Shown in pieces: positions 61,779 through 63,053 of a stretch of DNA of 64,000 nucleotides. Positions within the stretch are counted from its first letter, which is position 1; the number at the start of each line of letters is the position of its first letter. Both the position numbers and the translations under genes were made by a program. The notes under the pieces are model-generated. The model made no database searches. It had not been told where the DNA came from and saw only the letters and a program-made list of their open reading frames with translations. Source of the stretch: Thermoprotei archaeon (GTDB lineage Archaea; Thermoproteota; Thermoprotei_A; Sulfolobales; Sulfolobaceae); the NCBI GenBank assembly GCA_049973945.1, contig JBMFJH010000005.1, forward strand, positions 11,441 through 75,440. The letters run 5' to 3'.

Positions 61779-63053
61779 TCAGGGGTCGAAGACTCCTCCC
61801 AACTTGTAGTCTATGACGACCCCTAGCTTCTTGAGGAGGCCTTCTCCGATCAAGTCCTTCTCTATGTAGGGCGCGTTTAGAACCTCGGCGATAACGGATC
61901 TCCCGCCCAACCCCACTTTCGCGTACTTCACGTAAGTCCTATAACATTGCGACGTCGCCGTGCACACAGCGGGCCCCTCCGAAGGCTCGAAGGGTATAGC
62001 GTCGAAGTTCTCCTTGCTAAGAATCAACTCTCCCTCGAACCCCGTGTCCACCTTCGCCCTAACTCTTCTGCCCTCGACCTCGATCTCAATAATCAAGGAA
62101 GTACACCCTGTTGGGGACTCTATCCTGACCTTCTTGCCCTCCCTGACTTTCGACTCCGCGTAGTCGTAAGCGTCTTCGACCCTGTCGAACTCCCTCTCGC
62201 CTTCCCCGGCAACGACCACCTTGTACTTGCTGGCGACAGCACCCTTTGGCAGGTAGTGCTCAACCGCCTTCCTGGCCCACTCCCTCAGCCTGTAGGCGTC
62301 CTCTCCCTTTCTCTCCACCAAACCCCTCATCTCCAGTAAGTCGACAGGAACCCCCAGCTCCTCCGCCCTCTTCCTCGACACGGTGTAGCCCTCCCTCATT
62401 AGCCTCAAGATCCACTCGAAGTATTTCGGGTCGAGCTTTATCGGGGGAGACGGGAGGGCGACCACCTCGTTGAACTCGAGGTACTTGTAGTATATCAAGT
62501 CCGCCCCTGCCATCAGTCCAGCAATAGAGAGGAAGACGGTCTCCGGCTTGAGGCCTGGGGTGGCGTTAACGTATACCTCGTCCCCCTGCTCCTTGAACCT
62601 AATGATCTTGTAGACCACCTTGTCGTAGAGATCCTCTATCCCCTCGTAAAACGTCTCCTCTGAGGATATGGCCTTCACGACGACGAGCTGAGACCTGATC
62701 CCCTTCCCCCTGAGGTACTCCATTATGGCCTCCCCTGCCAGTCTCGCGTTCCACGTGTTAGTTGCGTACATCAGGACGTAAACCTCCTCCTCCTTGTGGC
62801 CGAACTTCCTCATGGCCGAGAACAGGGAGTCCAGCTCGGCGCAGGAGCTGGGGCCGGCCTTCCTTACGAAGTCCAGCAGGGCCTTCTTCAGGGCGTCGAA
62901 GTTCCTCGCTATGACCTCCTGCCTGTCGTCGTCGAACTTCAGCCTGCTCCAGTCCTTAAGGCCCAGACTGTTCACGAGTTTCTGGACTTCCTCGTCCCGT
63001 CTGGCCGAGTTGTCTAGAAGGGATGTCCCGACAGCGGTGATGTGAACCTTCAC
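61779..63053 (-). CDS. CARF (Cas_APE2256-type) - wHTH - clan AA (retropepsin-like, DTGF-type) aspartic protease fusion protein
   Basis: [37 protein letters not shown] (CARF signatures); [44 protein letters not shown] (wHTH); [24 protein letters not shown] with D336-T337-G338 and C-terminal [17 protein letters not shown] (retropepsin-like). Confidence 0.75.

Follow-up and report, generated by a model that had tools for sequence, protein, structure and literature searches.

We analyzed a 64,000-nucleotide (nt) stretch of contig JBMFJH010000005.1, from a Thermoprotei archaeon of the family Sulfolobaceae (here referred to as the window), in which a single open reading frame (ORF) joins crn1, the gene for a CRISPR-associated ring nuclease, in frame to a gene for a small aspartic protease. 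The original prediction, made from the sequence alone, had read this ORF as a CARF-winged helix-protease of a new type that is controlled by cyclic oligoadenylate (cOA). The ORF is intact and present exactly as had been described, at 61779 to 63053 on the minus strand and 424 amino acids (aa) long. Judged by comparison with its relatives, the fusion is the product of one missing base, not a selected architecture, and what recurs among those relatives is a pair of separate genes. The parts of the ORF are as follows.

61779-63053, minus strand: full ORF, crn1 and the protease gene fused in frame (GTG start, 424 aa)
62448-63053, minus strand: CARF7 domain of the Crn1 ring nuclease, aa 1-202 (Pfam, PADLOC, and alignment with Protein Data Bank [PDB] entries)
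63021-63023 and 62547-62549, minus strand: catalytic codons for Ser11 and Lys169, respectively (aligned with 3QYF and 7PQ2)
62259-62429, minus strand: SSO1393-type winged helix-turn-helix (wHTH), aa 209-265 (Pfam PF22165, E 1.9e-24)
62112-62231, minus strand: ββαβ "EGKK" module of about 40 aa, aa 275-314 (BLASTP, hhalign, profile, AlphaFold2)
62113-62116, minus strand: run of four Cs (C4), the deletion site, with five (C5) in a 96%-identical relative (base-by-base alignment, BLASTN, frame comparison)
62097-62111, minus strand: junction residues T315-G-C-T-S319 (protease frame read upstream of the protease start)
62104-62107, minus strand: GGTG Shine-Dalgarno (SD)-like motif, 7 nt before the protease start (sequence)
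62094-62096, minus strand: TTG start of the stand-alone protease, L320 of the fused ORF (called starts in loci L001, L003, and L015)
61779-62096, minus strand: clan AA DTGF retropepsin-like aspartic protease, 105 aa plus stop (TIGR03698, PEPT_D, conservation, fold)
62040-62048, minus strand: D-T-G codons (D336 in the fused numbering)

The N-terminal half is a Crn1 ring nuclease

The N-terminal domain matches the Pfam family Cas_APE2256 (PF09651; aa 70 to 202, E 6.8e-32) and the PADLOC family CARF7 (aa 1 to 265, E 1.6e-80), and it carries the three CARF motifs VGTSLL (aa 8 to 13), SCAELDS (aa 70 to 76), and TPGLK (aa 165 to 169), all of which agree with the CARF assignment made beforehand. The winged helix, placed at aa ~212 to 260, is covered by a Pfam match to SSO1393-like_WHD (aa 209 to 265, E 1.9e-24). 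Residues 1 to 315 align end to end with PDB entry 3QYF (Sso1393, E 2e-128) and residues 2 to 268 with 7PQ2 (Sis0811Δ268, E 3e-113), and the identity to full-length Sso1393 of Saccharolobus solfataricus is 62% (tblastn). Residues S11 and K169 align with both structures, and both columns are at least 90% conserved in the homologue alignment. The NCBIfam model NF040951 ("CRISPR system ring nuclease") matches aa 1 to 315 at 487.5 bits, below its equivalog cutoff of 600, a shortfall that we attribute to divergence and to a lost C-terminal tail, as profile positions 2 to 315 of 322 are covered.

By these alignments, aa 1 to 314 are orthologous to the characterized cyclic tetra-adenylate (cA4) ring nucleases Sso1393 and Sis0811 (Crn1). 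The predicted cOA sensor is thus borne out in its CARF identity, and it is more than a sensor, being orthologous to enzymes that degrade cA4. Both Sso1393 and Sis0811 cut cA4 to A2>P without metal, act as obligate dimers, and rely on the catalytic residues S11 and K168 (Sso1393) or S12 and K169 (Sis0811) (10.1101/380436; PMC8643638); the rate of Sso1393 is 0.024 per min, ten-fold slower than that of Sso2081 (10.1101/380436). Residues 269 to 322 of Sis0811 were treated as a tail predicted to be disordered and were removed, and the truncated enzyme was slightly more active on cA4 (PMC8643638). The window protein shares with Sso1393 (3QYF) and Sis0811 (7PQ2) the CARF7 domain, the SSO1393-type wHTH, the C-terminal extension, and the catalytic Ser11 and Lys169; it departs from them at the C terminus, where other residues stand in for the final 8 conserved ones (…RVYFLxx) and a 105-aa protease is added.

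The C-terminal half is a catalogued retropepsin-like protease

The C-terminal part had been read as a clan AA protease of the DTGF kind, and profile matches and fold agree on this. The NCBIfam model TIGR03698 (clan_AA_DTGF) matches aa 323 to 419 at 77.6 bits against a cutoff of 57.35, so that the two profile matches that had been expected, PF09651 at the N terminus and TIGR03698 at the C terminus, were both found. The PADLOC family PEPT_D matches at E 8.3e-23, and the Pfam family Asp_protease_2 matches weakly (E 0.015). Conservation of D-T-G, which had been proposed as a check, is seen in alignments of 12 and 23 sequences, in which the D and the F of the DTGF loop are invariant and the T and the G are at least 90% conserved.

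The protease was modeled with AlphaFold2 from 23 sequences, with a pLDDT of 89.8 and a pTM of 0.81, and the best PDB matches of the model in Foldseek are the proteases of HIV-1, EIAV, and XMRV (TM 0.66 to 0.77, probability 1.00). On this model we predict with confidence that the protease half has a single-lobe retropepsin fold. Retropepsins are obligate homodimers, and from this knowledge the active form of a single 105-aa lobe with one DTG must be a homodimer. The archaeal protease has in common with the three viral enzymes the fold and the single DTG lobe of ~100 aa, whereas its sequence identity to them is 15 to 29%, its gene is chromosomal, and in its normal two-gene state it is not part of a polyprotein.

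The family is not of a new type, as had been claimed. It was catalogued in 2014, when "Asp_prot" (Saci_1895) was listed as an accessory gene of type III-D/VIII-1 modules in Sulfolobales (Vestergaard et al. 2014, PMC3973734), and a PADLOC profile exists, PEPT_D, described there as "Aspartyl protease, in the type III operon in Sulfolobales." The window protease is like the Saci_1895 family in its 105-aa length, its DTGF motif, and its place directly after a type III-linked gene; the literature ties Asp_prot only to III-D/VIII-1 modules, whereas in the window the protease is the C-terminal domain of a larger ORF. The small protease family is catalogued but has never been characterized. The statement that no aspartic-protease CRISPR effector is known stands, as the 2025 classification lists only caspase-family and Lon-family proteases among the effectors activated by cOA (PMC12669027). 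Neither the pairing with crn1 nor the shared module described below is mentioned in the literature on Asp_prot and Crn1 that we consulted (PMC3973734; 10.1101/380436; PMC8643638).

One missing base joins two overlapping genes

A 96%-identical relative of the fused ORF lies on the contig of locus L001, where the window sequence GAGT-CCCC-AACAGG reads GAGT-CCCCC-AACAGG. In a base-by-base alignment and in BLASTN, the missing C is the sole indel across 1367 aligned bases, against 66 substitutions. From the C5 tract it is 24 nt to the TTG at which the stand-alone protease starts. When five Cs are present, the Crn1 reading frame closes with its tail and the protease starts at that TTG, 7 nt after GGTG; with four, translation passes straight from Crn1 into the protease, and T315-G-C-T-S319 stands in place of the Crn1 tail N-R-V-Y-F-L-D-Y-stop. 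That tail (…VP[DEN][RK]VYFLGx-stop) is conserved among the orthologues examined that carry the C-terminal extension (here Crn1-long). The GGTG motif is also found in S. solfataricus, Metallosphaera yellowstonensis, and L001; such a motif is complementary to the anti-SD sequence at crenarchaeal 16S rRNA 3' ends.

Between the window and L001, the ratio of nonsynonymous to synonymous substitution rates (dN/dS, ω) is 0.10 for crn1 and 0.15 for the protease, with dS of 0.13 to 0.15. Both halves have been under purifying selection since the two sequences diverged, which implies that the lesion either arose very recently or is an error of the assembly. When metagenome contigs were scanned for the exact junction pattern, with either C4 or C5, no match was obtained; the L001 sequence was not matched either, and its sample evidently does not belong to that collection.

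The two genes are separate in the relatives

With the whole protein as the query, 22 homologues were recovered from a set of 5.8 billion clusters, all of them 258 to 324 aa long, none fused, and none with the protease domain; one of these Crn1 homologues (P0001), 96% identical, is the protein encoded on L001. The protease by itself, as the query of a word-indexed search, retrieved only the 96% relative, and exhaustive and profile searches were needed. The exhaustive search of 1.84 billion representatives gave 15 protease matches, nearly all of ~105 aa and none fused to a CARF domain, and among the 5.8 billion clusters a profile search identified 24 proteins, none longer than 105 aa. One match of the exhaustive search, P0031 (1294 aa), was rejected as a false positive, a chitobiase-repeat protein. 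The sole longer protein with a credible protease match among the 1.84 billion representatives is P0035 (360 aa), which has a protease-like stretch at residues 178 to 278 and matched no Pfam family.

Our census of loci, among the matches listed, took in up to 10 genome loci and up to 45 metagenome loci. It includes ~13 crn1-protease loci, the 96%-identical contig among them, and the genes are separate in all. The single-chain architecture that had been claimed is accordingly seen in the window only, with no fused protein among the 22 and 24 homologues, the 15 matches, or the ~13 loci. In L001 and in S. solfataricus (L002 to L004), a separate ORF of 105 to 114 aa overlaps the end of crn1 in the +1 frame and encodes the DTGF protease, and separate pairs recur in M. 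yellowstonensis (L005), Sulfurisphaera tokodaii (L015), and metagenome contigs (L020 to L025, L028, and L030). In intact pairs the usual overlap is 11 nt, with the protease gene in the +1 frame and supplied with a GGTG motif and a TTG start of its own, an arrangement that suggests translational coupling. Decayed crn1-protease cassettes with several frameshifts across both genes were also observed (L018:3476-4800, L026, and L027:600-1965); the first of these contigs has a k141 name, suggestive of a short-read assembly.

A shared ββαβ module marks the partners of the protease

The C-terminal extension of Crn1-long (aa 275 to 314 in the window) is one copy of a ββαβ module of ~45 aa that also occurs in other proteins encoded next to the protease. 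Crn1 and such a partner are linked by BLASTP (2e-06), and profile-profile comparison of the Crn1 extensions with the partner repeats (hhalign) gave a probability of 97.8% and E 7.8e-13. A profile built from the partner repeats only, without Crn1, had as its sole genuine PDB match residues 277 to 322 of 3QYF. In an AlphaFold2 model of the full-length fused protein, the module stretch folds as ββαβ with a pLDDT of 62 to 74.

Distant members of the protease family in S. tokodaii and Acidianus brierleyi are preceded by an unannotated ORF of ~130 aa that overlaps the protease gene by 4 nt. This ~130-aa protein consists of three tandem copies of the module and is always followed by the DTGF protease (L016:7606-8004, L017:7615-8004, and L006:9609-10004; also L029, L036, and L037); in S. 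tokodaii and A. brierleyi, no recognizable cas genes lie within 8 kb of it. It ends in …KEGKK-x-x-I-K-SP-x-x-VY(F/L)L, as Crn1-long does. A third arrangement, at L008:4115-5625 and also in L032 to L035, consists of a Cas7 with a C-terminal extension of ~100 aa that ends in the module, then the protease, and then a second Cas7; PADLOC names the genes at L008 Cas10g, Cas5_IIIg, and Cas7_IIIg, and we refer to this as a type III-G-like module. The 2025 classification describes subtype III-G as Sulfolobales specific and as having neither an active cyclase nor CARF partners (PMC12669027).

In every Sulfolobales-type locus with upstream sequence, among the matches listed, the gene before the protease is module bearing, whether it encodes Crn1-long, the III-G-like Cas7, or the triple repeat. 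Because all three carry the module, the constant partner of the protease is the module with its hydrophobic tail and not CARF. CARF and cOA are not what the family has in common, since it also pairs with non-CARF partners, the III-G-like Cas7 among them. That the module is shared across the protease partners appears to be a new observation, and the module may tether the protease to its partner. We do not extend these assignments further. A link of the module to Pfam DUF5678 was considered, but only one partner protein passes that model, others weakly match different DUFs, and the Crn1 module matches none; and in bacteria, the ORFs that precede distant DTGF proteases are unrelated to the module-bearing partners.

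Type III genes and CRISPR arrays in the window

The fused ORF lies near a type III locus with the following features.

28003-29875, plus strand: CRISPR array 1
34380-37876, plus strand: CRISPR array 2
46617-49083, minus strand: CRISPR array 3, the nearest to cas10
49723-52044, minus strand: Cas10 with GGDD at aa 586 and an HD motif
52050-53060, near Cas10: Csm5
53079-54017, near Cas10: Csm3
54019-54429, near Cas10: Csm2
56084-56929, plus strand: Csm4
58511-59485, minus strand: Csx1-like CARF9 protein of 324 aa, a candidate cOA receptor between cas10 and crn1

A Cas10 with an intact GGDD motif ~10 kb from the ORF had been reported, and it is there, at a distance of 9.7 kb and with an HD motif as well. 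The Csx1-like protein matches only the CARF part of CARF-plus-HEPN profiles. The arrays hold 122 copies of the 24-nt repeat CTTTCAATTCCATAGAGGATTAAC (0 expected by chance) and account for the low-GC stretches of the window; variants of the repeat occur, …ATTATC in array 1 and …CCACAG… in most of array 3. A pair of genes for RFas and a RecF-like ATPase lies inside the csm operon between csm2 and csm4 (54531-55972, minus strand) and is a known crenarchaeal type III accessory pair (PMC3973734). A 1455-aa ORF (39320-43687, minus strand) sits between two of the CRISPR arrays.

Surroundings differ among the pairs: a cyclase-competent cas10 lies near the one in the window, no cas gene lies within 8 kb of the one in S. 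tokodaii, and a related protease subgroup belongs to III-G-like modules, in which the cyclase has been reported as inactive. Next to the fused ORF itself, a PaREP1-containing segment (60063-61023, corresponding to L001:1-961) is on the opposite side of crn1 and inverted with respect to L001, which marks a local rearrangement in one strain relative to the other. Directly upstream of crn1 (63269-63837, minus strand) is an ATPase_2-like archaeal gene that is split by an apparent 1-nt frameshift at GCCGG^TTC, between …EFLRAG and FSQMNVPF…. A window-wide scan for frameshifts is affected by the high GC content, which gives many overlapping spurious ORFs.

How the fusion arose and what the pair may do

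We consider it likely that the locus is a two-gene crn1-long + asp cassette in which the loss of one C from a C5 run joined the overlapping genes; the base may have been lost by mutation very recently or dropped in the assembly. If the organism in fact has C5 and two genes, C4 being a homopolymer miscall, the fusion would be purely an artefact, a sub-case of the same explanation that we regard as plausible but short of probable. It accords with the difference of exactly one base within a C5 run, with a second 1-nt frameshift in the next gene upstream, and with strong purifying selection on both halves and no other sign of decay; against it, ~18 other runs of 4 to 5 identical bases in the ORF show no indel relative to L001, and the frameshifted cassettes in metagenome contigs indicate that real decay happens. 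The 4.4-kb and 2.3-kb ORFs elsewhere in the window are intact, which speaks for otherwise good sequence quality and somewhat against random indel errors, so that the fusion may be physically real in the strain. An artefact would leave the biology of the cassette unchanged. The opposite extreme, a genuine single-chain effector, would have cA4 bound across the CARF dimer re-register the fused retropepsin lobes and start a proteolysis that the ring nuclease makes self-limiting. All three domains look catalytically or ligand competent, a cyclase-competent Cas10 and CRISPR arrays are nearby, Crn1 and retropepsins are both obligate dimers, other CARF7-effector fusions such as CARF7-RelE are PADLOC families, retroviral proteases tolerate N-terminal polyprotein extensions, and the C4 allele may be real, given the intact long ORFs. 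This architecture is nevertheless found nowhere else in ~5.8 billion clusters or ~13 loci, the 96%-identical relative included; its junction consists of five out-of-frame read-through residues that destroy the conserved Crn1 tail; and its lesion is a one-base homopolymer loss beside a gene that is frameshifted too. We judge it very unlikely. A C5 tract just upstream of the overlap, with the protease in the +1 frame, might also yield some fusion normally, by programmed +1 ribosomal frameshifting or transcriptional slippage, and proline codons followed by C are shift prone in bacteria. The run is, however, lineage specific (in S. solfataricus and M. yellowstonensis the same site is CCGGAT, with no slippery run), in all species the protease gene is equipped with an SD-like motif and a TTG start of its own, and no stimulatory element was seen, although none was searched for. 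With no conserved slippery site, we rejected programmed frameshifting as highly improbable.

For the two-gene cassette, we propose that the module and tail would be an adaptor by which the protease, an obligate dimer, attaches at a fixed stoichiometry to a partner that is itself dimeric or multimeric, such that the state of the partner would gate or localize proteolysis. In the Crn1 version, the gate would depend on whether cA4 is bound, and the slow ring-nuclease activity of Crn1 would reset the switch; in the III-G version, it would depend on whether target RNA is bound. In the window allele the tail is lost, free protease could still be made from the internal TTG, and a fusion product of 47 kDa, if made, would be like the precursor of a retroviral protease. 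We hold this tethering and gating model only tentatively. Control of the protease by cA4, whether covalent or noncovalent, seems to us improbable; so does the specific form of a 2:2 complex of Crn1-long and protease held by the module and VYFL tail, in which cA4 would gate the protease with the ring nuclease as a timer, and of a Cas7-tethered protease gated by target RNA, like Craspase, in III-G. Were it to hold, CRISPR immunity would have its first output arm based on an aspartic protease, and the window allele would be an accidental natural single-chain version of the Crn1-protease complex. In a different relation between the pair, the protease would cut its module-bearing partner, near the SP-x-x-VYFL tail or between repeats, and so tune Crn1 or the maturation of III-G. 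The hydrophobic V-Y-F-L tail resembles typical aspartic-protease P1/P1' residues, the gene overlap implies co-translation of the enzyme and the putative substrate, and removal of Sis0811 residues 269 to 322 slightly raises cA4 cleavage (PMC8643638). That published effect is small, however, it would be unusual for a protease to be dedicated to a single constitutive cut, and the 3QYF chain keeps its residues to about 322, although it was expressed without the protease. We regard the substrate model as quite unlikely.

Several observations weigh against the cassette with a docked protease as we have described it. GGTG and the Crn1 tail are coded by the same bases (AGG GTG TAT TTC CTT), so their conservation is not cleanly assignable to the protein or to the ribosome-binding site. 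A Stygiolobus locus (L019:4001-5308) has an intact crn1-long with the tail, followed by 345 nt of AT-rich noncoding DNA and no protease, one further locus has a 170-nt spacer between crn1 and the protease gene, and some cassettes (S. tokodaii and A. brierleyi) are outside cas loci. The docking and gating role of the module is purely one that we infer, and the full-length AlphaFold2 model, in which the protease part has a pLDDT of <35, is uninformative on domain packing and on the dimer geometry that had been proposed.

Comparison with known systems and implications

Like the cassette in the window, CalpL (Lon-SAVED), SAVED-CHAT, and Craspase (gRAMP-Csx29) have a protease that is genetically tied to signaling or effector components of type III systems. 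They differ from it in that the window-type protease is aspartic, would act as an obligate homodimer of 105-aa lobes, and is not normally fused to a sensor. The tethering of Csx29 in Craspase may offer a conceptual likeness to the III-G protease encoded beside a Cas7 with a docking extension (family list in PMC12669027). Csx1-Crn2 (PMC7293037) and CARF7-RelE (PADLOC) combine cA4-degrading and effector domains on one chain, as the window ORF would if it is real; those fusions, however, are conserved across many genomes, whereas the one in the window is a singleton that arose from a 1-nt deletion.

The reading of the ORF as a new class of CRISPR effector thus does not survive, and it is the conserved gene pair, not the fusion, that deserves attention; the annotation of this record should flag a probable frameshift and not a "CARF-protease" architecture. 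In that pair, a retropepsin-like protease is coupled by overlapping genes to an experimentally studied ring nuclease. The region of Sis0811 and Sso1393 that was taken to be a disordered tail and deleted for crystallography is, on the predicted structure, a conserved folded module, and this module recurs wherever the Sulfolobales-type protease is encoded, including in the Cas7 of the poorly understood subtype III-G. Tethering of an aspartic protease through the module would be a concrete and cheaply testable hypothesis for what this family does.

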